From positions 1-14,399 of the forward strand of contig CAYUTF010000083.1 in the NCBI GenBank assembly GCA_964447495.1: a DNA stretch of 14,399 bases. The letters run 5' to 3'. Positions within the stretch are counted from its first letter, which is position 1. The number at the start of each line of letters is the position of its first letter. A model generated the notes under the pieces. The model had not been told where the DNA came from. It saw nothing but the letters and a program-made list of their open reading frames with translations, and did no database searches. This DNA comes from an uncultured archaeon. Lineage in GTDB: Archaea > Asgardarchaeota > Lokiarchaeia > Sigyniarchaeales > SOKP01. Below are positions 3 through 13,239 of the stretch, in pieces. Both the position numbers and the translations under genes were made by a program.

Positions 3-1529
3 CAAGATTTAACCATCTTAGATTCCATTTCTTTTGATGGATGGTGTCGATGTAGTTATCCTATTGATATCACTAAAGACGGGTGCGATGAAATTTTAGT
101 AGGAGCGGGTGATGGCAACTTTTTAGTGGTTAAATTCGTAAAGGGATTGAATAAATTAGCTGGAATTATGAATTATAAGATCACAAAAAAAGTTTTATGT
201 GTTAATGCGGGAGATTTTACTCGCGATGGAAATATCGAGCTTATTCTAGGAAGTGAAGACAAAACGCTTAAAATCTTTGAAAATATTGAAGCAAAGGAAC
301 CAAAATATATATTCTATTATGATTCATGGGTAACAGCATGTGCTTTAGGTTATTTGAAATTACCAAAACTAGAGATACCAATTTATGGTTTATTAGTGGG
401 TACCAAAAATGGGTTTCTTCAATTAGTCCAATTTGAAGATAACAAACCTGATGTCATCTGGCAGAAGAATCTAGGTTTTCAGATAAATGTAATTGCAATT
501 GGGGATGTCACTAATGATGGTTACCATGAAATTGTTATTGGAACTGATGATTCAAAACTAATGATAATAAATAGTGAAGGAGAGATACTAAATTCATTAG
601 AGATTGAAGATGGACGGCCAATATCGATAAAATTAGAAGATATTGATGGAGATAACGCGAAAGAAATCTTGGTTGGATGCGCGGATGGGTCCTTAAGAAT
701 ATATCATAATCCAAGGTTAAACTCATCCGATATTGAATTAAAATGGAAAACTTCCACCTCATCTTCAATTAAAATTGTATCATCCATGAAAGACCCTGAG
801 AAAGGTTTGCCTAAAATCCTATATGGGGGATATGATAGAAGCATACGCTGTATTTCAGATTGTGAATGGGGAGAGAAACCTCCCTTGGATATACCCTATA
901 ATATTGTTATTCCTGAAACCCAGCCAAAAGAGAAAGAGAAATCAGTCGAAGAACTGATTAAACTTGAAACAGTTCCTACAAATATTAGAGAATATATATT
1001 AAAAATTTTAATTGATAAGAGAATCATTGAAGGGATCGCTAACGATTTAGTAAAACGGGGTTATGTAAAGGAAAAAGTGGTTGAAGAATTTGAAAAAATG
1101 TTAACTCAAAAATCAGTAAACATTGAAACGAAACAATTTTCACTCTGGGACCTACCTAAAGAGAGATTAGAAGAAGGGCTTGTTATCGAGCCAAAAATAG
1201 GAGCTAAAAGCAAAAAAATAACTCCTGTTGTAATTGAAGGGGATATTGAAGAAAAAGGAACCGCATTGATTGATGCTTTAAGTAAAGAAACTAAAGATTC
1301 CAATAATCAAAACATTTCTATAAAGAATGAGAATCTAAGATACATTATCATAGATTATTTAGAAAGAAATACTATAATTACATCAAAAACCAAATTTGTT
1401 AATGATATAGTTATCCTTGGCTATGATAAAAAATCAGTGTCTGATTTAATAGAAACTATGAAAGATGAGGGTAAAATTATTTATTCCCGCTCCGAACCAA
1501 AAGGTTGGACGCTAAATTCTGAACATTAA
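3..1529 (+). CDS. FG-GAP/WD40-like beta-propeller protein (BBS2/BBS7/ITFG2-like) with two C-terminal winged-helix-like repeats; 5'-truncated by the window edge
   Basis: The frame is open from nt 3 (QDLTILDSISFDGWCRCSYPIDITKDGCDEILVGAGDGNFLV...), so GTG 126 is not the true start. Four DxxxD(G/N)xxE(I/L)hhG blade motifs occur: DITKDGCDEILVG, DFTRDGNIELILG, DVTNDGYHEIVIG, DIDGDNAKEILVG. A charged linker and two related helical domains follow. Confidence 0.8.
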   Translation, partial: QDLTILDSISFDGWCRCSYPIDITKDGCDEILVGAGDGNFLVVKFVKGLNKLAGIMNYKITKKVLCVNAGDFTRDGNIELILGSEDKTLKIFENIEAKEPKYIFYYDSWVTACALGYLKLPKLEIPIYGLLVGTKNGFLQLVQFEDNKPDVIWQKNLGFQINVIAIGDVTNDGYHEIVIGTDDSKLMIINSEGEILNSLEIEDGRPISIKLEDIDGDNAKEILVGCADGSLRIYHNPRLNSSDIELKWKTSTSSSIKIVSSMKDPEKGLPKILYGGYDRSIRCISDCEWGEKPPLDIPYNIVIPETQPKEKEKSVEELIKLETVPTNIREYILKILIDKRIIEGIANDLVKRGYVKEKVVEEFEKMLTQKSVNIETKQFSLWDLPKERLEEGLVIEPKIGAKSKKITPVVIEGDIEEKGTALIDALSKETKDSNNQNISIKNENLRYIIIDYLERNTIITSKTKFVNDIVILGYDKKSVSDLIETMKDEGKIIYSRSEPKGWTLNSEH

Positions 1530-1537
1530 ACCTTTAA

Positions 1538-1972
1538 TTAATAAAAAAAACCTTTTATTTCTTCGGCAAATGGTTCAAATTGATTTAATTCTGTAAAATC
1601 TTTATTTTTGAATTTAGAGATAAATAAACTCAGAATAGGTTCTACTTTTTCAAAAAATTTCCTTACTAATTTATCTGTATCTTTTTTTGACTTATATATT
1701 AATCCGTATAAAATTATAGGTTCTTCACAATTACAATCTAATGCTTTTACTTGAGCTAATTTAAACACAAATAAAATCTTATCAGATTCTAAATATTCTA
1801 AAGAGATATTATTAAATGCATTTGTTGCAAAGGAATTAATGGCTGATATAAATGCTCCCCGTAAATCTTTATTACTTTCCTCAATTCCATTTATCTCTGA
1901 TACCTTTTTGAATTTATGCTTTACAAGTACAAAACCCCTGAAAACAATCCCCAATTCAAATAGTTCTTTCAT
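1538..1972 (-). CDS. Longin-domain protein (stand-alone, Asgard type)
   Basis: 144 aa with the beta-beta-alpha-beta-beta-beta-alpha-alpha pattern: LFELGIVFRGFVLV, helix DLRGAFISAINSFA (typical D-L-x-(S/G)-x-F-h-S-A-I-x-x-F), strands LEYLES/ILFVFK/IILYGLI and C-terminal F..F...I..F helix. Confidence 0.75.
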   Translation of the reverse strand: MKELFELGIVFRGFVLVKHKFKKVSEINGIEESNKDLRGAFISAINSFATNAFNNISLEYLESDKILFVFKLAQVKALDCNCEEPIILYGLIYKSKKDTDKLVRKFFEKVEPILSLFISKFKNKDFTELNQFEPFAEEIKGFFY

Positions 1973-2089
1973 AATATTATTTTTTTATGCATAATAATTA
2001 GTCTAAGATAGAATCTATTAAACTAAAAAAAATCCAGATATTTAATTTTACACAATTACAAGATTCTTTTTATAAAATCTATCATTGGA

Positions 2090-2899
2090 TTATTGAGACG
2101 CTTTTAACTTTAATGTTATTGCCTTCTGTGCGCATTTTTCAACACATATTCCGCATCCAAAACAAAAACTTTGCTTAAACTCTAAATGATGGTCGGAATA
2201 GGTTCTTGCTCCAAAATAGCACCATTCTACACATTTCCCACAATTTACGCACAATTGAGGATTAGTTTCCGTAACAAAATCACTTTTGACCATCTGAGGC
2301 GACCCATTGCGAAGAAATTTACTTAAAATTACACAACAACATGGACAACAATTACATACAATATAATAAAAATTAGGATTCGGATAATATATCAATTGAT
2401 GAACCAAGCCCTCTTGATCACATTTTTCTAACAAATTAACAACTTCTTCTCGTGACACCTTCTTTAGGTTATTTGATTTAAATGGAATATCATATAATGA
2501 TTTTCCTGAACCAATATGAATACAAGTTTGGAGAGGATGGTCACAGTTCGGTTTTTCATTATATCGACGTTGTGTTTCTCTACAATAGCAATTTGATATA
2601 CCAGTTACATTCGATCGACTTAAAAGCTCAAAAATTTCTTGACTTGGTAAAAATCGTATCTCTCCTGCAATATTTTTATTTAGGGGGACTATTTTACCGC
2701 CCCATCGTCCTTTTAATACATAGCAATTTAGTTTATGCATCAAATTAATCTTGAACTTTTTTTCTATTTTTCTGGTAAATTCAAGCATGATCCATTCTTG
2801 AATTCCAAAAAACGAAGTCAATATTTTTCCCAATAAAGGAATTCGTTCCAAAAGTCTGTCTATTTTCTTATAAAAAGGTCTACGATGAGAAAGGGACAA
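2090..2899 (-). CDS. Cys-rich 4Fe-4S dicluster (ferredoxin-domain) protein
   Basis: C-terminal CVNCGKCVEWC and CFGCGICVEKC ferredoxin motifs, preceded by the CYCR...C....TC...GLVH...CNCCPCCC domain typical of this anaerobe family. The TTG start is uncertain. Confidence 0.88.
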   Translation of the reverse strand: MSLSHRRPFYKKIDRLLERIPLLGKILTSFFGIQEWIMLEFTRKIEKKFKINLMHKLNCYVLKGRWGGKIVPLNKNIAGEIRFLPSQEIFELLSRSNVTGISNCYCRETQRRYNEKPNCDHPLQTCIHIGSGKSLYDIPFKSNNLKKVSREEVVNLLEKCDQEGLVHQLIYYPNPNFYYIVCNCCPCCCVILSKFLRNGSPQMVKSDFVTETNPQLCVNCGKCVEWCYFGARTYSDHHLEFKQSFCFGCGICVEKCAQKAITLKLKASQ

Positions 2900-2964
2900 T
2901 ATAATGATAAAGTATTAGTTATAGATTATTAGGAAAAAGAGTATACTTAATTTATTTCTTACGA

Positions 2965-3165
2965 TTTTATAGCAGAATTAATATTTAGTTAGAATTAGAT
3001 ATATAATTATCTTAAAAATGTGGCTAACATCATGAATAGAGTTATCAACATTCAATTAGATAAAAAAATTGCTGAACCAATAGAAGCCTTACCTCAATTG
3101 AAAAAAGGAGTTAATATACCTTTATTACACATAATTTCATTAAATTTTTATAGCAAGAATTAATA
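2965..3165. repeat. Imperfect 19-20 bp direct repeat pair (2965-2983 and 3146-3165)
   Basis: TTTTATAGCA-GAATTAATA versus TTTTATAGCAAGAATTAATA: identical except for one inserted A. Confidence 0.5.
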
Positions 3166-3228
3166 ATTTTTTAAACTAATAATATTTTATTTAAATTATT
3201 AGAAAAAAACAATTGTTTAAGAGTTATT

Positions 3229-3474
3229 ATGAGTATTGAAGAAGAATCGCGATTTTGCCCTTACTGCGGAATAGCATTAACGAAACCCTATTGGGTTCAC
3301 ATCCAAAAAGAGCACCCCGAAAAATACGCTCAAAAAGAGACATGGATTAAATTATATCAAGATTATAAAAAGATTGGTATGGACCAAGAAGTCAGCATAA
3401 AAGTAATTTCAGAATTATTTAATTCTACTCCTGAAGAAATAAAATCCTTTCTAAAAAATTCGAAAGCATTATAA
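3229..3474 (+). CDS. Small C2H2-type zinc-finger protein with C-terminal helical/HTH-like segment
   Basis: CPYC-x10-H-x4-H (CPYCGIALTKPYWVHIQKEH) followed by QEVSIKVISELFNSTPEEIKSFLK; ATG start, protein-like composition. Confidence 0.75.
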   Translation: MSIEEESRFCPYCGIALTKPYWVHIQKEHPEKYAQKETWIKLYQDYKKIGMDQEVSIKVISELFNSTPEEIKSFLKNSKAL

Positions 3475-3596
3475 ATATTATTATAAAATAGTCTAAAATT
3501 CTTTTAAACTAAAAATTACTCTTTCTTTATCTAATTAATTATTTTAAAATAAGAATAGTAACAGGAAAATAAATTAGCAATTATTAAATAATTAAG

Positions 3597-3884
3597 TTAA
3601 AAATCTTCTTCATCTTCTTCTAATAATCCTGCTTGCTTTAGTAAATCCTCAACAGTATCTCGTGCTTTCATAACCTGTTCATTTTCTGAAAGTTTTAAGT
3701 TATCTAACACCGAATCAGAAAACTCCATAAACTTTTTTATTGATTGAGTTGAAAAATCTTTTAGCTTGTCAGATGTGTCTTTTATAAAGTCCTTCCCACT
3801 CTCTCCAAAAGCTCCCCCGACGAAATCTTCGAACGCTTTATTGAGCTTATCGATAGGAGTCTCCTTCTTTTCATCATTACTCAT
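3597..3884 (-). CDS. Small acidic amphipathic-helix protein with 11-residue periodicity, function unknown
   Basis: 95-aa ORF with ATG start, purine-rich leader, TTTATATA box at 3940-3933 and acidic tail EEDEEDF. Confidence 0.8.
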   Translation of the reverse strand: MSNDEKKETPIDKLNKAFEDFVGGAFGESGKDFIKDTSDKLKDFSTQSIKKFMEFSDSVLDNLKLSENEQVMKARDTVEDLLKQAGLLEEDEEDF

Positions 3885-4123
3885 ATTTCATTCTCTCATT
3901 CTTTCTTTGTAGTAAGTTTTTTATATGTTTATTATATAAATCAGCATTTAATAAATAATTTTCCATATATTTCTAAATATGAATCATAAAAAAAATTTCT
4001 AGATTGAGTCCATAATAATTATAAACAGAATGTTAAATTTTGAAAAAAAATACCTCCATCCTTGCGAATGATAAGAAAGTCTTGATAAAAAATATTAAAT
4101 ATTTGTAAATAAAAATTATAATA

Positions 4124-4870
4124 ATGTCAGAATCGAAAAATAATGTAAATTTTTCTCCTAACTCTAAAGAGATAGAAGTTAAAAAAATGAGTGATATTCT
4201 CCTTATCATTTTAAGTATCTTTTCAGTTTTAATACAATTACCCCTCCTATTTATTCCGGCTGGTAGATGGGATTGGATCGAAGCATGGATTTACTTATTG
4301 ATGTTTTATGTCTTTATAACATGCGATATGCTTCTTATTAATAAGAAAAATCCACAGTTGCTTATCAATCGAATGAAGACGAAAAAATCGGGAATAACGA
4401 AAGCTCAAGGATCGGATAAATGGTTGCTACCCCTTATATCAATTAATTTCATTGGAATTTTTTTAATTCCTGCGTTTGATGTGCGCTATAGTTGGTCAAG
4501 AATCTCAATATATGTTGAAATTGCTGGTTTTGTTCTCCTAGCCGTAGCATTCTATTTCTTGTTTCGATCAATGTTAGATAATGCCTATGCATCTAAAGTT
4601 TTGGATATTAGAAAAGAAGGCGGTCAAAAAGTCATTGATACGGGGTCTTATGCGATTGTACGCCATCCTATGTATACGGGATTCATGATAATGGGATTTG
4701 GTGTTACTTTAGGACTGGGATCATGGTTTGGATTGATTCCCGCGGTAATCCTGACAGCTTTACTTATTGCAAGAATTTCATACGAAGAAAGGATGCTCAT
4801 TGAAGGTCTTGAAGGTTATGAAGAATACAAGAAGAAAGTCAAGTACAAACTTATTCCCAAGGTTTTTTAA
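4124..4870 (+). CDS. Isoprenylcysteine carboxyl methyltransferase (ICMT/Ste14/PEMT) family membrane methyltransferase
   Basis: Multiple TM segments plus the family signature VIDTGSYAIVRHPMYTG ... RISYEERML ... YEEYKKKVKYKLIP. Confidence 0.92.
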   Translation: MSESKNNVNFSPNSKEIEVKKMSDILLIILSIFSVLIQLPLLFIPAGRWDWIEAWIYLLMFYVFITCDMLLINKKNPQLLINRMKTKKSGITKAQGSDKWLLPLISINFIGIFLIPAFDVRYSWSRISIYVEIAGFVLLAVAFYFLFRSMLDNAYASKVLDIRKEGGQKVIDTGSYAIVRHPMYTGFMIMGFGVTLGLGSWFGLIPAVILTALLIARISYEERMLIEGLEGYEEYKKKVKYKLIPKVF

Positions 4871-4959
4871 AGCTTAATTTTTATATGTTAATTTTTCCCA
4901 TATAAGACTAAGGTTGTATTATGTCTAAACGATTAGATACTAAAATAAAAATAAAAAAA

Positions 4960-5745
4960 TCAGAGATGAATATATTCTCTACTCATCTTTTCTTGGATAT
5001 TATGGAGAAGTTCTTTTATCGCTTTCTTATCGAAACTCTCCATATTTTCTATACTTGAAATCATGGAATCTAACTCTTCCTTAATTTGAGTTACGTTTTG
5101 AATTCGGGAATTGAGCCTCTCTAATGAGAATTTTAATTTAGAACGCATCCCTCGAAAATAATCAAGTGCATCCTCTCTTGATTCACATCGTTCCAAAAAT
5201 CTCAAGATTTTCATGCGATGTGGTCTCCTCACAAAAGGATGGCCGTATTCTTCAGGTGGTGCCATATCTGACATCATGGCAAATTCATTAGCCCATTTTT
5301 CCTTTAATGTCTCAAGATATTGTTTACCTTTGTCAGATATGAAATAAATCTTTTGCTCTCGTCCCTCTATGGTTGCATCTTTCACATTGAGATATTCCCC
5401 CTTTTCAAGCTCTTCCAAACTCCTCATCATACTCCCCCGTGGAATCTTATATTTTTCCTGCAATTGATATCCATTTATCCCTTCTACCTTATCAATAATT
5501 ATTGATAATATGAAGAAATACTTAATTTCTTTGAAATCTTCACGTGAAATAGGTATTGGTGGCATCGGAGGAGGGTGATGTCTATACTTGCTTCGTCTAC
5601 TGTAAGGAAAATAACCAGGGGGAGGCATAGGGTGCTGATTTCCTGGGTAACCATGAAAACGAGGAAGGTGATTAAATTCCATGCTATCTTTTTCTTGGTC
5701 TTTTTCATTTTTTTTAAACAATTTTCTCACTAAACATATGATCAT
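4960..5745 (-). CDS. PadR-family transcriptional regulator with Pro/His-rich N-terminus and C-terminal coiled coil
   Basis: wHTH core ILSII...GINGYQLQEKYKIPRGSMMRSLEELEKGEYL...GREQKIYFISDKGKQYL, with heptad-like C-terminal helix. The start is uncertain (ATG 5745, GTG 5730 or a later ATG). Confidence 0.88.
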   Translation of the reverse strand: MIICLVRKLFKKNEKDQEKDSMEFNHLPRFHGYPGNQHPMPPPGYFPYSRRSKYRHHPPPMPPIPISREDFKEIKYFFILSIIIDKVEGINGYQLQEKYKIPRGSMMRSLEELEKGEYLNVKDATIEGREQKIYFISDKGKQYLETLKEKWANEFAMMSDMAPPEEYGHPFVRRPHRMKILRFLERCESREDALDYFRGMRSKLKFSLERLNSRIQNVTQIKEELDSMISSIENMESFDKKAIKELLHNIQEKMSREYIHL

Positions 5746-5755
5746 ATGATCATAT
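5736..5755. promoter_or_regulatory. Perfect 20-bp palindrome, putative operator 1 of the PadR gene
   Basis: ATATGATCATATGATCATAT is its own reverse complement and overlaps the expected transcription start and first ATG. Confidence 0.75.
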
Positions 5756-5776
5756 AATATACTAATATAAATTAAC

Positions 5777-5784
5777 CTATATAA
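5777..5784 (-). promoter_or_regulatory. Archaeal TATA box of the PadR gene
   Basis: TTTATATAG on the minus strand, about 30 nt upstream of ATG 5745, between the two palindromes. Confidence 0.65.
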
Positions 5785-5804
5785 ATGTGATCATTTGATC
5801 ATAT
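5785..5804. promoter_or_regulatory. Second copy of the palindrome, putative operator 2 (over the BRE position)
   Basis: ATGTGATCATTTGATCATAT, 18/20 identical to operator 1 and 49 bp away. Confidence 0.75.
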
Positions 5805-5876
5805 TAGCAATAACTCTTGAAATGTTCAAATAACAATATAAAAAATTCTGGAGTTAATGAAATCTTCCTAAAAGTA

Positions 5877-7098
5877 CTATATTACTCTCCTTTTCTTCCA
5901 CTGTTTCAAATCGTCTTCAGAATAACCCAAGAGATCACAAAATATTTCATGATTATGCTCTCCAAATTCAGGACCAGCAGACTTGACGTCTCCTTTGGTT
6001 TCAGAAAAATTGATTAAGCGATTAGGAATTGTAGCGTGATCCACTCCCCATTTTTTAAAATCAAAATCTTGACATAACATTCCTCTTGCTTTTAAATTAG
6101 GATGATTTGGAATTTCACTCATTTTACGAGATTTTCCACAAGGTATTCTTTGGGATTCAAGGTGAGAAATGGCCTCTTCTTTTGTAACTGTACGGGACCA
6201 GCTTTCAATAATTTCATCTAATAAATCTACATGATTGAATCGTTTAATTGGGTTATCAAATTTTGAATCAGTAATTAACTCCGGTTTTAGTAATATATAA
6301 TTACATAAACGCTTCCATTGATTTTCAGTAAGAGTGGTCATGGTGATTAGACCATTTTTAGTATGATATTGATTATAAACTGGGAGAAATTTAGAACCAA
6401 GATCTAGTTTCTTGGTTAAGGGCATGAATTCTCTTGCTTGTGCCCTCATATTTATAGCAAACATTAAATCATGCATACTAATATCAATAAATTGTCCTTT
6501 ACCCGTTTTTTCTCTATAGTATAATGCTTGAGATATTCCAATTGCAGCAACATGACCCGCAGTATAATCTGCTATAGGTAATTTAGGAGGTCCCTCTTTT
6601 AAGTCTAAAGCATCAAGAATTCCGGATTCCGCTTGGATGATTATATCAAATGCAGTTTTTTGGATATACTTTTCTAATCCTTCATTTCCGAAACCAGAAA
6701 TTTTAGCATATATCAATTGAGGGTTGATGTTAATTAAATCTTTGTACCCTAACCCCCATTTCTCCATGGTCCCCTTTACAAAGTTTTCGACCAACACATC
6801 AGATTTTTCTACAAGCTTAAAAAAGATTTCTTTTGCTTCTTGCTTTCTTAAATCTAATGAGATTGATTTCTTGCCTCTATTTAGTATAGAAAACAAGGGA
6901 AATATTGTTCTATCGTAAAGAACAAAAAGCCTGAAGCTTTCTCCAAACGGAGGTGGTTATAGGTCTACGTTCGAGATGAATTTAGCTTTCTACCTTAATA
7001 ACTTCAGCTCCTTGATCCGCAAAAAAAATTAACGACCATGGTCCAGAGATAAACTGTGAACAATCAAGAATCCTTAGACCTTCAAATATTTTAACCAT
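5877..7098 (-). CDS. Family III CoA-transferase (CaiB/BaiF/Frc family), interrupted by a 31-nt insertion; intron-containing gene or recent pseudogene
   Basis: ATG 7098 gives MVKIFEGLRILDCSQFISGPWSLIFFADQGAEVIKVE (canonical N-terminus). After the insertion the frame of ORF 5877-6896 resumes at 6956 with PPPFGESFR...LNRGKKSISLDLRK...SDVLVENF...ISGFG...AFDIIIQAESG...IADYTAG (catalytic Asp region)...GPEFGEHN. The joined product is 396 aa. Confidence 0.9.
6957..6987 (-). other. 31-nt intervening sequence in the CoA-transferase gene (boundaries can slide by 2 nt, to 6959-6989)
   Basis: AAG GTA GAA | AGCTAAATTCATCTCGAACGTAGACCTATAA | CCA CCT CCG. It contains TAA in both the upstream and downstream frames, and exact removal restores KVEPP. 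Confidence 0.85.
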
Positions 7099-7147
7099 AA
7101 AGGGTTAAAATTAAAAATTTTTAATATACTTTTTTATGAGAAGTATT

Positions 7148-8074
7148 CTAAGCAAAACTTAGTTCATAGAGTTTTTGATTCGCTTCCATAGGAGTTTTCG
7201 CATTTTTTACTACTTCAAAGAAATCTTTTGAGAGCTTTTTCATCTCCTGTTCAGCATGGTTGGCATGTCCCGACAATGCGATTCTCCCAAAATCAGAATT
7301 AATGAGGTTGAGAAGTTTATTCCTTATTATCGAAAGGGGAATCCACGTAAACATTTTATATTTCTTGGGAAGAATTGGAATATTGATATCTTTTAGAGCT
7401 TTAATATTCTCTCGGAACCCCTTAATTGCTAAGGTAGCAAGCTCTATGTCTTCCCCAAGCCTAATATTTCGGTGCCTTGCAGCATAACTTCCCATAGCTA
7501 ATGGGCTTATTAATGCTGCATGCGTTTTCAACCATGCATCAATATTTTCGCTCAACTCAACTTTAATCCCCGAATTGGTAAATTCTTTTTCAATACTTTT
7601 TAAGCGTTCACTAATTGTTCCATCAAGTTCCCCGACATATAATATAACGTCATCTACATAAGCTGCAAATATCTTATAATCTTCTCTATATCCACCAGGT
7701 CCTCCAAATCCAAGAAGTATTCTACTTCTCTTTATATTTTCTAGATACTCAGCAGCTCCAGAGGGATTATTTCCAGTAAATATTATAGTTGGGCTTATAT
7801 TCTCCCTTAAGATAGGTAAAATTAGACTTACTTGTTGTCGTTGCATGATTACCAATATAACATCGTAGTAATCTTCTTTTTCTAGTTTCTCTACTACATT
7901 TATATCCGTTTTGTACTCTTTATGGAATATGTCGTCCTGAATAATCAATCCATATTGCTTTAGATCTTGTAAACGTTTTCCTCTTGCAAGAATTGAGACA
8001 TCATTCCCACCATTCTTAAGTTTATAGGCAAACATACTACCAATAACTCCTGCTCCATATATTAATATTTTAAT
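7148..8074 (-). CDS. Ketopantoate reductase (PanE/ApbA) family protein, probable ATT start
   Basis: The Rossmann motif (I)KILIYGAGVIGS lies upstream of the listed ATG 8035. It also has LARGKR, YYDVILV, GELDG and WLKTHAA motifs. AGGTGA RBS at 8086-8081. Confidence 0.88.
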   Translation of the reverse strand: MKILIYGAGVIGSMFAYKLKNGGNDVSILARGKRLQDLKQYGLIIQDDIFHKEYKTDINVVEKLEKEDYYDVILVIMQRQQVSLILPILRENISPTIIFTGNNPSGAAEYLENIKRSRILLGFGGPGGYREDYKIFAAYVDDVILYVGELDGTISERLKSIEKEFTNSGIKVELSENIDAWLKTHAALISPLAMGSYAARHRNIRLGEDIELATLAIKGFRENIKALKDINIPILPKKYKMFTWIPLSIIRNKLLNLINSDFGRIALSGHANHAEQEMKKLSKDFFEVVKNAKTPMEANQKLYELSFA

Positions 8075-8160
8075 AATTTTTCACCTGAAAACAAAATTAA
8101 ATTCATAAATAATGAATAGATGAAATCATATTTAAATTTAGTCATGCCTAAATTATTATT

Positions 8161-8198
8161 TTAACTAGGGATAAATGAAGCTTAATATCCTTTGTTAA
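8161..8198. repeat. Imperfect 13-bp inverted repeat in the divergent panE-like/acyl-CoA synthetase intergenic region
   Basis: TTAACTAGGGATA-N12-TATCCTTTGTTAA (11/13 matching). Confidence 0.4.
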
Positions 8199-8411
8199 TT
8201 AATCTATATAACGATCATTAATATCTATAATTAAAAGCTTCAAGAGTGAATCTTTTAAACAATTTAGATTCTAATCCGTCTTATAACAAATATCCTTCTT
8301 TACTAATTAAAAATTTACTCTTTAACTTGAAAATCATATAACCTTTTAATTTTGCCATTAAAAATTCACATTTTAAAGGTATGGTATATTTTCTGATATA
8401 AGTGCATAATA

Positions 8412-9893
8412 GTGATTGAAAAACATTTTCTATATGGCTTTTTAAACCCAAAGAGCGTGGCTTTTTATGGTGCAAATAATAAAGGAAGCTCGTTAGCATC
8501 AATTCAAATAATGAACCTCATAAAATCACGATATGATGGTAATATCTATCCTATCCATCCTAAATTAGAATCAGTTATGGGTTTCAAAGCTTATAAATCA
8601 ATTTCAGATGTACCTGAAATCCCTGATTTAGTAGTGATAGTCCTTCCCGCAAAAATTGTCCCTGAAATTTTTAGAGAATGTGGTGAGAAGGGGGTAAAAA
8701 AGATAATTCTTATTTCAGGAGGGTTTCGTGAACTAATTGAAGACCGTAAAAACACATTAACAGAAGAAATAAATGAAATCTCTCGCAATTATGGAATAAG
8801 GTTTATTGGTCCAAACTGTTTAGGTGTTTTTAATAATTATTATGGGGACTTAGATGAAGATAAAGCATTTAATACCGCAATTTGGGAAAATATTAAAAGA
8901 GGTAACTTTTCAATAGCTTCTCAGAGCGGAACACTCTCAAGCCATATCTGGTTTGATCCAGAAAACTTAGATTTAGGTTTAAGTAAATCACTTTCAGTAG
9001 GGAATGAAGCGAATATTGATATTGTCGATTGTTTAGAATATTATAAAGATGATCCCTATACCAAAGTTATAGGGTTATATATTGAAGAATTAAAACGTGG
9101 AAAACAATTTTTGGCATTGGCAAAACAAATAACCCCACATAAACCAATATTAGCAATATATGTTGGTGGGTCTGAAGCAGGAAACCGTGCTTTACAAAGC
9201 CATACCGGTTCTTTGGCAGGAAATGCAAAAATATATGACGCAGTTTTCAAGGAATCAGGAATAATTAAAACCGAATATGTACAAGAGTTTTTAGATATTG
9301 CTTTAGTTTTATCTAAAGGTGTCTTACCTAAAGGTAGAAGGTTGGCAATAATTACCAATTCAGGGGGTCCTGGAGCGATGATCGCAAATAATGCTGAAAA
9401 ACAAGGATTAGATGTGCCAGAATTATCAAATTTCCTTCAGGAGAAATTGAAAGAGGTTTTACCAGTCACTGCTAGCTTTAAAAACCCAATTGATTGTACA
9501 TTTGATATGAATTTACCCTATTTTTATATTGACCTACCAGAAATGCTAATGAAATCTGGTGAGGTTGATGCAATAATTCAATATGGCGTTGTTGGATTCC
9601 AAGATGTAATGGATGATTATCTCTCCTACGAAAGAATAGCAAAATATGCTGAATTTAAAAGTCAGCCAAGTGAGGTTATGGATGGATTAGCTAAAAAATT
9701 AATGTTGCCTACAATCGCTAATTCAAAAAAATACTCCATTCCTATACTACATATTAGCCCTAAGTGCTTTACAAGTCCATGGTCAAAAAGACTTCGGGAT
9801 AACGGCGCTCTTCTTTTTAAATTTTGGGACAGACCGGTAAATTGTCTTTCAAAAGTATGTGATTATATTGAATTTAAACAAAAAATTTCTTGA
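8412..9893 (+). CDS. acdA: Acyl-CoA synthetase (NDP-forming) alpha subunit / CoA-binding protein
   Basis: NPKSVAFYGA, IYPIHPK, PDLVVIVLP, ISGGFRE, RFIGPNCLG, SQSG, VGNEA, SHTGSLAG (phospho-His), ITNSGGPG, NPID. There is no ATP-grasp domain. Substrate is unknown, so the symbol is family level. Confidence 0.92.
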   Translation: MIEKHFLYGFLNPKSVAFYGANNKGSSLASIQIMNLIKSRYDGNIYPIHPKLESVMGFKAYKSISDVPEIPDLVVIVLPAKIVPEIFRECGEKGVKKIILISGGFRELIEDRKNTLTEEINEISRNYGIRFIGPNCLGVFNNYYGDLDEDKAFNTAIWENIKRGNFSIASQSGTLSSHIWFDPENLDLGLSKSLSVGNEANIDIVDCLEYYKDDPYTKVIGLYIEELKRGKQFLALAKQITPHKPILAIYVGGSEAGNRALQSHTGSLAGNAKIYDAVFKESGIIKTEYVQEFLDIALVLSKGVLPKGRRLAIITNSGGPGAMIANNAEKQGLDVPELSNFLQEKLKEVLPVTASFKNPIDCTFDMNLPYFYIDLPEMLMKSGEVDAIIQYGVVGFQDVMDDYLSYERIAKYAEFKSQPSEVMDGLAKKLMLPTIANSKKYSIPILHISPKCFTSPWSKRLRDNGALLFKFWDRPVNCLSKVCDYIEFKQKIS

Positions 9894-9906
9894 AAAAATA
9901 TTAATT

Positions 9907-10350
9907 TTATATTTTAATTTTCTCAAGTACAAATGAAGGTAATTTACCTTCTTCTATTAAAATCTTTATTAAATTAGGCATACTATTCCACTGTCGAATA
10001 CATAAATTATACTCTTCTTCTGTGATATCTTTCAAATTTTTATATCCATAAGTCAACATTGCTGCAGGATGAGCTATAAGAGGCTTCACTTTTTCACAGG
10101 GAAACGCATCACACTGAGCACAACTATCTAAACCTTTTTCTTTTGCACAAGGTCTAGCTTTGCATCGTTTATCGGCAACTTTATCTCCCTTACTTTTACA
10201 TCCTTCACAGGCTACATTTTCGGCGGTATACATTTCATGGCCTAGGTATTTTCGCCATGCATCAACTAGTTTTTGCCTGACGTTAATATCATCAGATCGA
10301 GCAGCGCATAGATGACAATTATAGCCACAATAACCAATTAAATCGTTCAT
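9907..10350 (-). CDS. DUF3795-like Cys-rich metal-binding protein
   Basis: IGYCGYNCHLC ... CEGC ... CKARPCAKEKGLDSCAQCDAFPCE cysteine pattern. Confidence 0.85.
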   Translation of the reverse strand: MNDLIGYCGYNCHLCAARSDDINVRQKLVDAWRKYLGHEMYTAENVACEGCKSKGDKVADKRCKARPCAKEKGLDSCAQCDAFPCEKVKPLIAHPAAMLTYGYKNLKDITEEEYNLCIRQWNSMPNLIKILIEEGKLPSFVLEKIKI

Positions 10351-10436
10351 AATTACTTCAAATTAACTTTATTAATTGAAAATTTAAGTTTTAGAATTAT
10401 TAAATTAGACTTATTTAATAATGACTCTATTTCCAT

Positions 10437-10616
10437 TCATAACCAAGTATATTCACTTTCATCAATTTTTTTATGAAATTTTTTTTCATCTTTTTTTAAT
10501 TGACTTACTTTACTGTTTGGCGAATAAGAACTTATTGCTTCTTGGTGTGGTTTCTCTTCTTTATCACGTTTATGATCTTTAAGATGATCTACTCTATGTT
10601 CGTATTTTTTACTCAT
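10437..10616 (-). CDS. Small highly charged hypothetical protein (59 aa)
   Basis: MSKKYEHRVDHLKDHKRDKEEK...; ATG 10616 follows an RBS-like GAGTGAT and is preferred over ATG 10652. Confidence 0.6.
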   Translation of the reverse strand: MSKKYEHRVDHLKDHKRDKEEKPHQEAISSYSPNSKVSQLKKDEKKFHKKIDESEYTWL

Positions 10617-10772
10617 ATTAATCACTCTTTTAGAATTAAGTAACTTATTCATAGCTCTTATAATTAGTTTTCGTACATCTTTTGAAAATTTAGGTTTTAA
10701 AATTACTCCGGAATTCTATCAAATCTCCGTGAAAGTAAAAAAGAATCGAAATAAATAATCTTTGATAAATTT

Positions 10773-11180
10773 TTACTCTTCAAATAGATCATCGAATTTT
10801 TCCCCAAGTATATTAGCTATTTTTTCTAATTCGTTTTTATTGAAATACTCTTCGAGTTCTTCATTAGTTATCGCATTTAATTTAATTAGCTTGTCTGTTG
10901 TAATTCCCACTTTAGACGATATATTATCTAAATCTTCAAGAGTCTTGGTTTTTAGCAAATCTTTTACTTTAGGTTCTTGATAAAAGATTTCATTTAATGG
11001 TTTATTTAAAATTTCAGCTATTTTAAAAGAAATAGTTAAAGATGGATTATATGATCCTTTCTCTAAATAATAAACAGTTTGGCGAGAAACTCCTATAAGT
11101 TCAGCTAATTCTTGCTGACTTAAATTAAACTCTTCCCTTATTTCCTTTATGTGTGATTTTACTTTAATCTTAAACTTCAA
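10773..11180 (-). CDS. XRE/Cro-C1 HTH regulator (COG1476-like) with a second degenerate HTH domain
   Basis: IKEIREEFNLSQQELAELIGVSRQTVYYLEKGSYNPSLTISFKIAEILNKPLNEIF, then ISSKVGIT...LEKIANILGEKFDDLF. TTG 11180 follows GGTGGGA; ATG 11216 is the alternative start. Confidence 0.9.
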   Translation of the reverse strand: MKFKIKVKSHIKEIREEFNLSQQELAELIGVSRQTVYYLEKGSYNPSLTISFKIAEILNKPLNEIFYQEPKVKDLLKTKTLEDLDNISSKVGITTDKLIKLNAITNEELEEYFNKNELEKIANILGEKFDDLFEE

Positions 11181-11250
11181 ATAATTCCCACCAAAACTCC
11201 AAAATTCTATTTTCATAGAGAAATTTATGTAAAATAAGCCCTTTTAAAAC

Positions 11251-12072
11251 TTATTTTAGCTTAAAAAGTTCCTCTATTGTACAATTTAAAACTTCAGCTA
11301 TTTTATAAGCTAATACTAAACTAGGATTATATCGCCCCTCTTCTAAATATTTAACCGTTTGTAAGGGAACTCCAACACTTTCAGCTAATTGTGCTGCACT
11401 CAGATTAGCTTTCTCTCTCAGTTCTTTGATTGAGGTCTGTAAGCTTTCGCCTTCCCGAATTTTTGAAAGTATATAACTAATAAAGTTGTCAAATGCTAAT
11501 TCCTGTGGCTTGAAAATTTTATCCTCTAAACCTTCTGGAGTTAGTGATAATTTAGAAATCATCTTCTTAATACTATTTTCAATAATAAAAGGATCTCGTA
11601 GCCCCGGAATATATCCTTCAGGTCCTATCCCTCTTGATTTCGTACCTGAACTTACCGCGCTATGTCCTGCAGTTTCAATTTTAACGGTGTACGTTTTAAA
11701 CATCCTATCGAATACTCCATTTACAATATTTATATTTTGAATTCTTTTATACGGAATTGTCGCTCGCATCTTGGTGAACACTCCATGATTAATAATAATA
11801 TTCTCTTTTTGTATAACATAAGAAAAATTTCGAACATATGCCGAAAAATACCAAGCAGAAATTAGAGCAATTACTAGATATGGAATAGCAACACTACTTA
11901 CTAATAATATTAGAAGAGAATTGAAATCAAGTTGTTTATTAATAAATAACACTAAATATATAGTAATCATTGCGATTGAAGCTATGATTAAGATTAAATT
12001 GTTTTTTAAAACTTCTTTCTTTATGAAATCTCGAGATACTTCACCTTCATATGCATCACTCTCTTTGTTCAC
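11251..12072 (-). CDS. Membrane protein: 2 TM helices + bacterial-type PH domain (bPH_2/YdbS-like) + C-terminal XRE HTH
   Basis: TM pair, then FSYVIQKENIIINHGVFTKMRATIPYKRIQNINIVNGVFDRMFKTYTVKIETAG...IPGL (bPH_2 signature), then IKELREKANLSAAQLAESVGVPLQTVKYLEEGRYNPSLVLAYKIAEVLNCTIEELF. GGAGGA RBS at 12086-12081. Confidence 0.88.
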   Translation of the reverse strand: MNKESDAYEGEVSRDFIKKEVLKNNLILIIASIAMITIYLVLFINKQLDFNSLLILLVSSVAIPYLVIALISAWYFSAYVRNFSYVIQKENIIINHGVFTKMRATIPYKRIQNINIVNGVFDRMFKTYTVKIETAGHSAVSSGTKSRGIGPEGYIPGLRDPFIIENSIKKMISKLSLTPEGLEDKIFKPQELAFDNFISYILSKIREGESLQTSIKELREKANLSAAQLAESVGVPLQTVKYLEEGRYNPSLVLAYKIAEVLNCTIEELFKLK

Positions 12073-12106
12073 TCTCTTTATCCTCCTTTAATTAAATTTA
12101 TTATTA

Positions 12107-12316
12107 TTTATATAAATAAAGTTTACATTTATATTAAAATCTATTGCTTTATTAATTCTTTATAATTTAAGCTACTCTAACAATGTATAATAGACTTTAC
12201 TAGGGAATTAATATTAAAATATTGGAATCTAAATGGAAATTTAATCAAAACATTTAAATGGTCAAAATATTTATATATTATTGTAAAGTATGCTAGTCAT
12301 AAATTAGGTATGACTA
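12107..12316. promoter_or_regulatory. Divergent promoter region with TATA boxes and candidate operators
   Basis: TTTATATAAA 12107-12116 and TTTATATA 12270-12277; TGTATAA-N4-CTTTACT 12184-12201; TGTAAAG-N4-CTAGTCA 12282-12299; perfect inverted repeat TAGTCATA-N7-TATGACTA 12294-12316. Confidence 0.5.
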
Positions 12317-12347
12317 ATAAATAATTAGAAAACGGAAGTGGGAAAAT

Positions 12348-12782
12348 ATGACTAATAGGTCTGAATTGATCTTTTTTAGTAATTATATCGAAGAAAATGA
12401 TGAATCTGCATCACTACATGCCGATAAAAAAGAACTTAATAAATCTTATATCCTTATAGATGAATTTAAGCTGTTAGATTACAAATCAGATGTTGAATCT
12501 AAGAAATCTGTAAAAGATAAGAATCAACAAACCGAAGAAACCTTAATAAAATCATCCAAAATCATAATTCTTACTATCTTTACAAGTTCAGTAATTCAAT
12601 CAATATTCTTTGTATTTATACTTCCTACTAAATTTACTTGGCCAGATCACGTATTAGTATTTTTTCTTGTATTTGGTTGGTGCATGTTCTTCAATAGTAT
12701 TTTCTTTGAATCAGGTGTTATAAAAAAAGTGTCAAATTATTTGAATGTAGCTCTTACAGATTACGATAATTTGGGAGTATAA
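12348..12782 (+). CDS. Hypothetical membrane protein (charged N-terminus, 2 TM; possibly truncated by a premature TAA, extended form ending at 12860)
   Basis: Hydrophobic segments IIILTIFTSSVIQSIFFVFILP and VLVFFLVFGWCMFFNSIFF; in-frame hydrophobic continuation after the stop. Confidence 0.7.
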   Translation: MTNRSELIFFSNYIEENDESASLHADKKELNKSYILIDEFKLLDYKSDVESKKSVKDKNQQTEETLIKSSKIIILTIFTSSVIQSIFFVFILPTKFTWPDHVLVFFLVFGWCMFFNSIFFESGVIKKVSNYLNVALTDYDNLGV

Positions 12783-12909
12783 TGGTACCTATGGTGCCTA
12801 ATAATACTTTTGTCTTCCATCCTAATTCCAAGAACATATTTAATTGAAAAAAAAATTTAAGTAAAAAAGTGTGAAGAAAGCCAAAAATTTGCGATAGAGG
12901 TGATAATTT

Positions 12910-13239
12910 ATGACTGAAATTAAGGAAGATTTAGAAACAAGTAAGTTTGGGTTAATTGATCAAGATTGGCCAAAGTTCAGTTCAGATAAGCTTTTAAAAA
13001 GGAATAATATAAAAGGAAGTTTGGCGTATGCTCTCTTCTTTAATTCTTTATTAATATTTAGCTGTATTGCTCTAATCTGCTTATTCTATGTAATTGGAGG
13101 AATTCTACTTAATCCATTATTTATTTTCGGTATTGTGATTGTCATATTACTCTTTGCACTAATTGAAACGATCTCTCTAGTTGAAAAAGATATTCCAAAA
13201 AAAAACGTTGGTGAGGATAATGATGCTAATAATCACTAA
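12910..13239 (+). CDS. Hypothetical small membrane protein (2 TM)
   Basis: GAGGTGA RBS at 12897-12903; long hydrophobic hairpin LAYALFFNSLLIFSCIALICLFYVIGG/LFIFGIVIVILLFALIE. Confidence 0.8.
   Translation: MTEIKEDLETSKFGLIDQDWPKFSSDKLLKRNNIKGSLAYALFFNSLLIFSCIALICLFYVIGGILLNPLFIFGIVIVILLFALIETISLVEKDIPKKNVGEDNDANNH

Follow-up and report, generated by a model that had tools for sequence, protein, structure and literature searches.

A candidate bulge-helix-bulge mini-intron in the coding region of an Asgard CoA-transferase gene, with related inserts in tRNA and protein genes of the same family

Background

Introns with bulge-helix-bulge (BHB) motifs are known from archaeal tRNA genes, in which Marck and Grosjean are said to have described non-canonical forms in 2003, and reportedly, through work of Watanabe in 2002, from the cbf5 pre-mRNA of Crenarchaeota. 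In eukaryotes, the splicing of XBP1 and HAC1 mRNA by IRE1 and RtcB is likewise free of a spliceosome: an endonuclease cuts RNA loops, a tRNA-type ligase takes part, and the XBP1 intron measures 26 nucleotides (nt). Here we describe 31 nt which interrupt a family III CoA-transferase gene on contig CAYUTF010000083.1 of the Asgard archaeal assembly GCA_964447495.1. The whole contig of 14.4 kb (14,399 nt; C83 of the source genome, G000) was analysed and is called the window in the following; the assembly has 3.8 Mb and 31% G+C and is 98% complete. We put at roughly 85% the probability that these 31 nt are a BHB intron in the coding region of the CoA-transferase pre-mRNA.

The cbf5 intron of Crenarchaeota is of the BHB type and lies in the coding region, a hetero-oligomeric endonuclease is presumed to process it, and it has been lost in some lineages, as the accessible part of the report states (PMC2738675, Yokobori 2009). 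The insert described here, termed site A, shares with it the BHB type and the location within a protein-coding region. It does not belong to the cbf5 family, which interrupts a pseudouridine synthase gene of Desulfurococcales and Sulfolobales, whereas the host gene of site A matches CoA_transf_3 and occurs in Promethearchaeota. Unlike cbf5, the present case involves two sites in one gene, inserts of only 29–35 nt which resemble in sequence the tRNA introns of the same genomes, and, in relatives, also the genes for RNA polymerase A'', proteasome alpha, a Rag-like GTPase and histone. The cbf5 splicing was shown by experiment; that of site A is deduced from DNA. A BHB intron has also been found in the 5' untranslated region (UTR) of the Haloferax volcanii HVO_1309 mRNA, where it is a substrate of the endonuclease in vivo and in vitro; according to the portion of that paper available to us, only the crenarchaeal cbf5 mRNA intron had been reported before, apart from its own case (PMC7714728). 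That intron is located in an untranslated leader of a euryarchaeon, while site A is inside a coding sequence and breaks the frame. Asgard tRNA genes are heavily interrupted, and the accessible parts of both papers on this subject cover tRNA introns only (PMC11291895; bioRxiv 10.64898/2026.10.13.758758), whereas the host here is an mRNA. In the literature searched, endonuclease-spliced introns of coding regions have been reported for a single gene, crenarchaeal cbf5. No BHB introns in Asgard protein-coding genes were found in this literature, outside of which lay most subscription journals and supplements, so an earlier report is possible. With XBP1 and HAC1 the insert would have in common a very short, frame-changing intron and the pairing of an endonuclease with a tRNA-type ligase; these systems differ by their nuclease, IRE1, by twin stem-loops and by being a regulated stress switch, and homology is not claimed.

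Results and discussion

A frame-breaking insert in a CoA-transferase gene

The CoA-transferase gene is located on the minus strand of the window and is divided into 37 + 359 codons by 31 nt (6987–6957; Table 1). An earlier note on this DNA had described the gene as intact on either side and free of other lesions, and the insert as sitting exactly within the conserved motif EVIKVE^PP (^ marks the junction here and below). Both statements hold. The two pieces match CoA_transf_3, in-silico joining of the exons gives an open frame of 396 amino acids (aa) which reads GTA GAA CCA over the junction, as had been foreseen for the ligated product, and intron-less orthologs run continuous at the same nucleotide. 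Exon 1 ends with GTA GAA (6993–6988), followed by AGC TAA; exon 2 opens with CCA CCT CCG at 6956 and reaches its stop at 5877–5879. The stops noticed before in both frames are TAA 6984–6982, which ends the upstream frame, and TAA 6959–6957, which shuts the downstream frame read backwards. Therefore, neither read-through nor a single frameshift restores the gene. Terminal repeats are lacking and a 2 nt AA redundancy makes the insert equally writable as 6988–6958 or 6989–6959, both in agreement with the first description. The 31-mer occurs only once in the 3.8 Mb assembly, and none of its 16-mers recurs.

Misassembly had been named as an alternative. We placed assembled contigs (Logan) of four DNA runs, X1 to X4, on positions 6700–7200. 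The insert is bridged by contigs of X1 (6895–7200) and X3 (6811–7016), while those of X2 and X4 stop inside it; no indel, deletion form or joint was seen at the insert in the contigs of the four runs over this region. Because the run that matches best may come from the sample of origin, these contigs lend only modest support, and the comparative evidence is much stronger: as the insert is found at the same site in orthologs too, misassembly can be set aside. Run X1 furthermore has loose ends at window positions 6981 and 7026, from a second allele in the sample whose insert resembles that of genome G081 (L045); two or more species with the intron thus share that sample.

The same nucleotide is interrupted in related genomes

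A search through all 154 genomes of the order gave 47 orthologs in the family of the window, the source genome included (65–75% identity over exon 2), and three further ones in another family (46–47% identity). The 5' regions were aligned for 49 of these; for the remaining one (G114) the 5' end was located on another contig. Relatives are Promethearchaeota (Promethearchaeia), in line with the Asgard-like host that had been suspected. An insert at site A, exactly between GAA and CCN, is present in 24 of the 47 family orthologs; 19 of these inserts measure 31 nt and five measure 30 nt. A second insert of 32–35 nt, site B, follows the first base of codon 16 in 11 of the 47; the source genome does not have it. 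Both sites are occupied in nine orthologs, B alone in two and neither in 21, and the three distant orthologs carry no insert. The insert sequences are highly divergent across species. Those of 30 nt and 33 nt keep the frame, yet all of them hold in-frame stops, so the length of the insert is not bound to the reading frame.

Once the inserts are cut out in silico, 24 of 25 genes can be read without interruption as far as the normal stop; 23 of these are complete (395–398 aa) and one is cut by a contig end. The exception is G108 (L065), where a separate 1 nt deletion in an A-run at about 610–620 breaks exon 2, by either a sequencing error or true pseudogene formation; a third intron suspected in this gene was in fact this deletion. 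For exon 1, the ratio of nonsynonymous to synonymous polymorphism (pN/pS) was 0.16 in 21 site-A bearers and 0.13 in 21 intron-less alleles (rows lacking an aligned start were dropped), by which measure exon 1 is under purifying selection. The open frames after excision together with the low pN/pS therefore count against a pseudogene, a footprint or a frameshift site. Next to the insert, 19 of 21 bearers share the exon bases AAG GTA GAA, synonymous positions being fixed as well; this string occurs in none of 23 non-bearers.

On a quick maximum likelihood tree, which covers 48 spliced proteins without G108 and G114 and has low support at many forks, site A takes at least 14 changes of state and site B at least eight; the tree of the CoA-transferase gene does not track genera. 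Therefore, presence and absence at one exact nucleotide turn over fast, and site A changes far more often among these 48 tips than the cbf5 intron does. This turnover may be due to precise loss or to gain, in either case more than once, to alleles being transferred or to a combination of these.

Predicted BHB structure and exon-intron covariation

One register fits all species: exon GUAG, bulge AA^N, and, at the other end, intron CUAY, bulge AN^C. The boundary is unambiguous, i.e. without terminal redundancy, in six of the 24 site-A inserts, and these fit only the GUAG/CUAU register. The register proposed earlier, AGGU/ACCU with cuts after AG and AU, lies 2 nt upstream and fails to yield the conserved product in these six. 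In the source genome the arrangement reads GUAG-AA^A ... CUAU-AA^C, with all four pairs of the central helix H, one of them G-U. The 5' bulge is closed by G6986-C6963 and the 3' bulge by G6994-C6955. The helices beside the bulges had been called non-canonical; this is not so on the 5' side, where the bulge has the canonical 3 nt instead of effectively six and is closed by a G-C pair, but the weakness of the exon side is real, with an outer helix h of 1–2 bp. Both inner stems of the intron hairpin are present in the minimum free energy fold, and a covariance model derived from the site-A and site-B inserts (R1) scores 6955–6994 at 35.8 bits (E 2.9e-7, window).

Table 1. Coordinates of the interrupted CoA-transferase gene, its predicted BHB elements and related inserts (window positions, or locus positions where a locus is named; ^ marks a junction or predicted cut)
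Feature	Position	Strand	Remarks
Exon 1, CoA-transferase	6988..7098	-	37 codons, ATG 7098 to GAA 6990-6988; Pfam CoA_transf_3 profile 2-33, E 6e-9
Candidate intron, site A	6957..6987	-	31 nt, phase 0, between codon 37 (GAA) and codon 38 (CCA)
Exon 2, CoA-transferase	5877..6956	-	359 codons and stop; CoA_transf_3 profile 53-366, E 1e-74
Helix H, exon strand GUAG	6990..6993	-	pairs with 6959-6962; compensatory GUGG/CCAU in two orthologs
Helix H, intron strand CUAU	6959..6962	-	helix H paired in 94.6-94.7% of cells
5' bulge AA^A	6987..6989	-	predicted cut between 6988 and 6987
3' bulge AA^C	6956..6958	-	predicted cut between 6957 and 6956
Intron helix h' and hairpin	6963..6986	-	G6986-C6963; CUA 6985-6983/UAG 6967-6965; UUC 6980-6978/GAA 6972-6970; loop AUCUC 6977-6973
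Whole BHB motif	6955..6994	-	closed by one exon-exon pair, G6994-C6955 (outer helix h)
Site B inserts	L031, L032, L034, L036, L038, L043, L051, L053, L062, L065, L118		helix GCUC/GRGY
tRNA genes with related T-loop (58/59) introns	L106, L108-L111, L113, L114, L119-L123, L126, L127, L129, L130, L132, L133
RNA polymerase A'' insert	L135:1208-1237 (G077:C71)		30 nt between GEPGTQ and MTLRTFHYAG, trigger-loop coding region; Pfam profile 66-88 ^ 89-265
Proteasome alpha insert	L115:1208-1236 (G081)		29 nt; profile 1-98 ^ 101-189
Rag/Gtr-like GTPase insert	L128:1208-1238 (G077)		31 nt, immediately in front of DFGGQ; profile 1-41 ^ 54-211
Archaeal histone insert	L105:1003-1032 (G092), L125:1208-1237 (G110)		30 nt, same site in both genomes
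Histone-like open reading frame insert	L131:1208-1236 (G141)		good BHB, no Pfam match

The earlier note had proposed to compare orthologs for covariation, and covariation between exon and intron is indeed found among them, including the compensated helix GUGG/CCAU. On 23 site-A sequences, 84.1% of the cells pair in the BHB structure, compared with 30–53% when the partners are slid, two-sided changes occur at eight of 15 pairs and the covariation score is reached by none of 500 shuffles. Taking sites A and B jointly, 86.3% are paired (94.7% in helix H) versus 34–47% with slid partners, and the score of 0.54, versus 0.19 in shuffles, is again matched by none of 500. Two-sided changes are seen at seven of nine pairs of helix h' in the ortholog alignment. 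The outer pair is G-C at 23 of 23 A sites and U-A at 10 of 10 B sites. Among 41 protein-gene introns at seven sites, helix H has four of four pairs in 32 and three of four in eight, and the outer pair is kept in all 41, with the second pair of the outer helix present in only about half. From site to site the intron strand is complementary to its own exon (GUAG/CUAU, GUGG/CCAU, GCUC/GGGU, AAAG/CUUU, GAAU/AUUC, GCUA/UAGC). This match, with the exon sequence changing between the seven sites, is the independent argument for the structure. In the strict hBHBh' form both bulges are closed by flanking helices; with h' present and covarying and h only 1–2 bp long, the predicted motif fits the relaxed HBh' class.

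Related tRNA introns and inserts in other protein genes

Both covariance models of the site-A and site-B inserts, R1 and R2, were run over the 135 genomes of the family. Besides the CoA-transferase sites, 30 matching loci were inspected, of which 20 are tRNA-like, six belong to protein genes and four are false or unclear (L112, L116, L107 and L117, the last two with an open unspliced frame). The context of the 20 tRNA-like loci is mostly GGUUCRA^...^(AU)CC, which is T-loop position 58/59. After excision at the model boundaries, 11 of these 20 loci give an ARAGORN tRNA that spans the junction, compared with one of 20 before. The Rfam tRNA model fails to recognise tRNA genes interrupted in the T-loop, so standard annotation probably under-counts the tRNAs of this family. 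These introns have the geometry and the covariance model of site A, and presumably the same machinery.

Similar inserts, for which a search of the genome had been suggested, are present in the genes of relatives, protein genes among them (Table 1). Those of site B, proteasome, histone and GTPase split a codon (phases 1 and 2). In the source genome, the genes for RNA polymerase A'', proteasome alpha and the GTPase are uninterrupted exactly at these junctions. Genome G077, which is 100% complete, has the interrupted rpoA'' as its sole copy, so here the cell could not live unless the insert is removed. Inserts of sites A and B, tRNA introns and the inserts in other genes all have a central hairpin with a C-NNNUC-G loop, which suggests an intron body of common descent. 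Around site A the exons read GGUAGAA^CC, similar to the T-loop context GGUUCGA^CC of tRNAs; as speculation, this likeness hints at a route by which an mRNA site might be colonised. In 151 genomes spread over the phylum, R2 matches at E <= 0.005 were found in six of 25 family members and in none of 125 genomes elsewhere, under strict search filters.

The source genome itself was scanned in several ways. When 150 of about 2,900–4,300 candidates were scored with R1 and R2, the known 35.8 bit intron was missed, so this is a weak negative; the only match, C158:81–121, lies inside an open frame and was counted as false. A first scan by structure descriptor and open reading frames (ORFs) returned 43,347 candidates. 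A tighter descriptor matched 16,825 times in the genome and 15,704 times in the reversed genome, i.e. without enrichment, and ORF filters reduced its matches to 958 and then 153 candidates, none of them convincing. With an alignment profile, nhmmer ranked the true intron fourth (E about 10), and the other top matches in this genome look like chance. The 56 calls made by ARAGORN, many with implausibly long introns, were not used.

Splicing machinery and proposed pathway

The source genome has two genes of the EndA family (PF01974), which score 104 and 69 bits, and a single gene for RtcB (561 bits). Judged from the translations as read, the EndA copy on contig C196 keeps the catalytic His and Lys and that on C3 is without the His, which suggests that they are the alpha and beta subunits. 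The part of PMC5829648 that was accessible describes the Asgard EndA as (alpha-beta)2 with an L1 loop tied to broad specificity, and relaxed motifs as being cut only by (alpha-beta)2 and epsilon2 enzymes.

In the proposed pathway, exon GUAG would pair with intron CUAU in the transcript to give the 4 bp central helix. The 5' splice site would then lie in a 3 nt bulge (AA^A) closed by the intron's own hairpin, and the 3' splice site in a second 3 nt bulge (AA^C) closed by one or two exon-exon pairs. The tRNA-splicing endonuclease, probably (alpha-beta)2, would cut both bulges, after 6988 and after 6957. RtcB would ligate the exons to ...GAA^CCA... in frame and so restore the conserved VIKVE-PPPFGE motif of the 396 aa enzyme, the intron being released, probably as a circle.

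A wider interpretation, which we hold only tentatively and a shade below even odds, is that the insert belongs to one family of BHB mini-introns of about 30 nt which, within one family of Promethearchaeia, has more than once changed place between tRNA genes, at T-loop 58/59 and elsewhere, and protein genes, each copy having a 3' segment complementary to its new exon. The inserts occupy seven sites in six kinds of gene, resemble tRNA introns of the same genomes and turn over rapidly between species. Spread could proceed by reversed endonuclease/ligase splicing, followed by reverse transcription and recombination, and precise losses could come about via spliced copies. Splicing of mRNA would then be routine and necessary in these archaea, which are related to eukaryotes, and might possibly gate expression as it does for XBP1 and HAC1. 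Confirmation would mean that gene prediction in Asgard genomes systematically cuts such genes short or breaks them up, and that mRNA splicing without a spliceosome is a normal part of expression in these archaea, down to the sole RNA polymerase A'' gene of one genome. The spread of BHB introns would also become testable, because filled and empty sites coexist in closely related genomes.

Alternative explanations

Several points weigh against a BHB intron. The evidence comes from DNA, and the spliced junction and the intron circle are predicted. The folding energy of the sequence in the source genome is not better than that of shuffles (z -1.21 and +0.56), and RNAalifold on its own predicts just the inner hairpin, not the BHB. 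The outer exon-exon helix has only 1–2 bp and closes the 3' bulge poorly, and the helix pair beside this bulge is mismatched in eight of 41 introns. The distance to the shuffled and slid controls (84.1% against 30–53% of cells paired, none of 500 shuffles) is inflated, as the structure was drawn from the same sequences and these are related to each other. Finally, the scans of the source genome gave no second convincing intron; they were non-exhaustive, i.e. such an intron was not found rather than absent. With an ordinary single-sequence energy, chance is not to be judged from this sequence alone, and the comparative data settle it. The earlier proposal, a BHB intron of the endonuclease type in a metabolic gene's mRNA, is supported by conservation across species, by covariation of exon and intron, by the related tRNA introns and by the genes for EndA and RtcB; its splicing we infer.

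Removal at the RNA level might also be the work of another nuclease/ligase pair or of an unknown small ribozyme, with the BHB-like pairing only bringing the ends together. The weak outer helix, the mismatches at helix pair 1 (8/41), the poor thermodynamic support for the fold and a cutting enzyme that is itself deduced would all be compatible with this. Yet the same model with the same boundaries describes the tRNA introns, where excision restores tRNAs in 11 of 20 loci, and the spacing of 3 nt bulge, 4 bp helix and 3 nt bulge is kept at seven unrelated sites. Group I and group II introns are far longer than the 29–35 nt found here, which speaks against a ribozyme of these kinds. We therefore consider another remover unlikely. 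That the insert is never removed, the gene being a pseudogene or the site the footprint of a mobile element, has little to recommend it: the frame is broken and one ortholog (G108) has its additional 1 nt deletion, but the same site is hit in 24 species whose exons are 25–30% apart in protein and show no other lesion, exon 1 has a pN/pS of 0.16, exon and intron change in a compensatory manner, and an insert of the same kind interrupts a single-copy RNA polymerase gene. The footprint, which had been offered as a fallback explanation, moreover does not agree with a 31-mer that has neither another copy nor terminal repeats and whose excision leaves open frames. Just as improbable is a gene in two polypeptides, i.e. 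a 38-residue N-terminal peptide assembling with a C-terminal protein started within exon 2. Both parts are conserved and a TTG is available at 6896, but the 20 codons between 6956 and 6896 (PPPFGE..., codons 38–57) are conserved in frame without a start codon, the intron-less alleles are continuous exactly at the junction, and the exon-intron pairing as well as the codon-splitting inserts would be left unexplained.

Solutions at the ribosome appear even less credible. In bypassing as known from phage T4 gene 60, a process of the ribosome for which the codons of take-off and landing have to match, the 31 nt would be hopped over. The likeness lies in a short untranslated gap within an intact coding sequence and a stop right after the break; in the source genome this stop is one codon past the putative take-off site and a hairpin follows. 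At the 24 site-A inserts, however, the codons do not match: against a take-off GAA, the last codon of the insert is UAA, AAA, CAU, UAC, AAU, AUA, UAU or UAG, depending on the species. Hopping also could not repair inserts that split a codon, as those at four other sites do, and the same element resides in tRNA genes, which are not translated. We give this very little weight, and least of all to programmed frameshifting through the insert. A length of 3n+1 and a U-run just after GAA in some orthologs are what such a mechanism might use, but the target frame stops just before CCA in G000 and G019, no open overlap exists between the frames, the five orthologs with 30 nt in-frame inserts carry in-frame stops, and ten extra residues would fall inside the conserved VIKVE-PP motif.

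Genomic neighborhood and further observations

An ApbA/PanE-like reductase gene lies upstream of the CoA-transferase gene on the same strand, and a divergent gene for an ADP-forming acyl-CoA synthetase is nearby, so this is a locus of CoA metabolism. Directly upstream of the ATG, at 7099–7147, an A+T-rich box (AAAAAGTATATTAAAAATTTTTAATTTTAA) is nearly identical in several orthologs of other genera (e.g. L028, L029, L035) and probably represents the promoter. Repeated motifs containing TGATCA (ATGATCATATGATCATATG and a related copy) are found at about 5745–5800, just upstream of a winged-helix gene (4960–5745), and may be operator sites. At 126–1526 on the plus strand, the window has an ORF with matches to BBS7/BBS2-type and FG-GAP beta-propeller domains (Pfam E 1e-16), a eukaryote-like domain family in an archaeon. 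Elsewhere in the source genome, contig C80 (about 10–13035) has 16 ARAGORN tRNA calls in 13 kb, all of them on the same strand. This dense array stands out from the remainder of the assembly and could derive from a mobile element, a virus or contamination.

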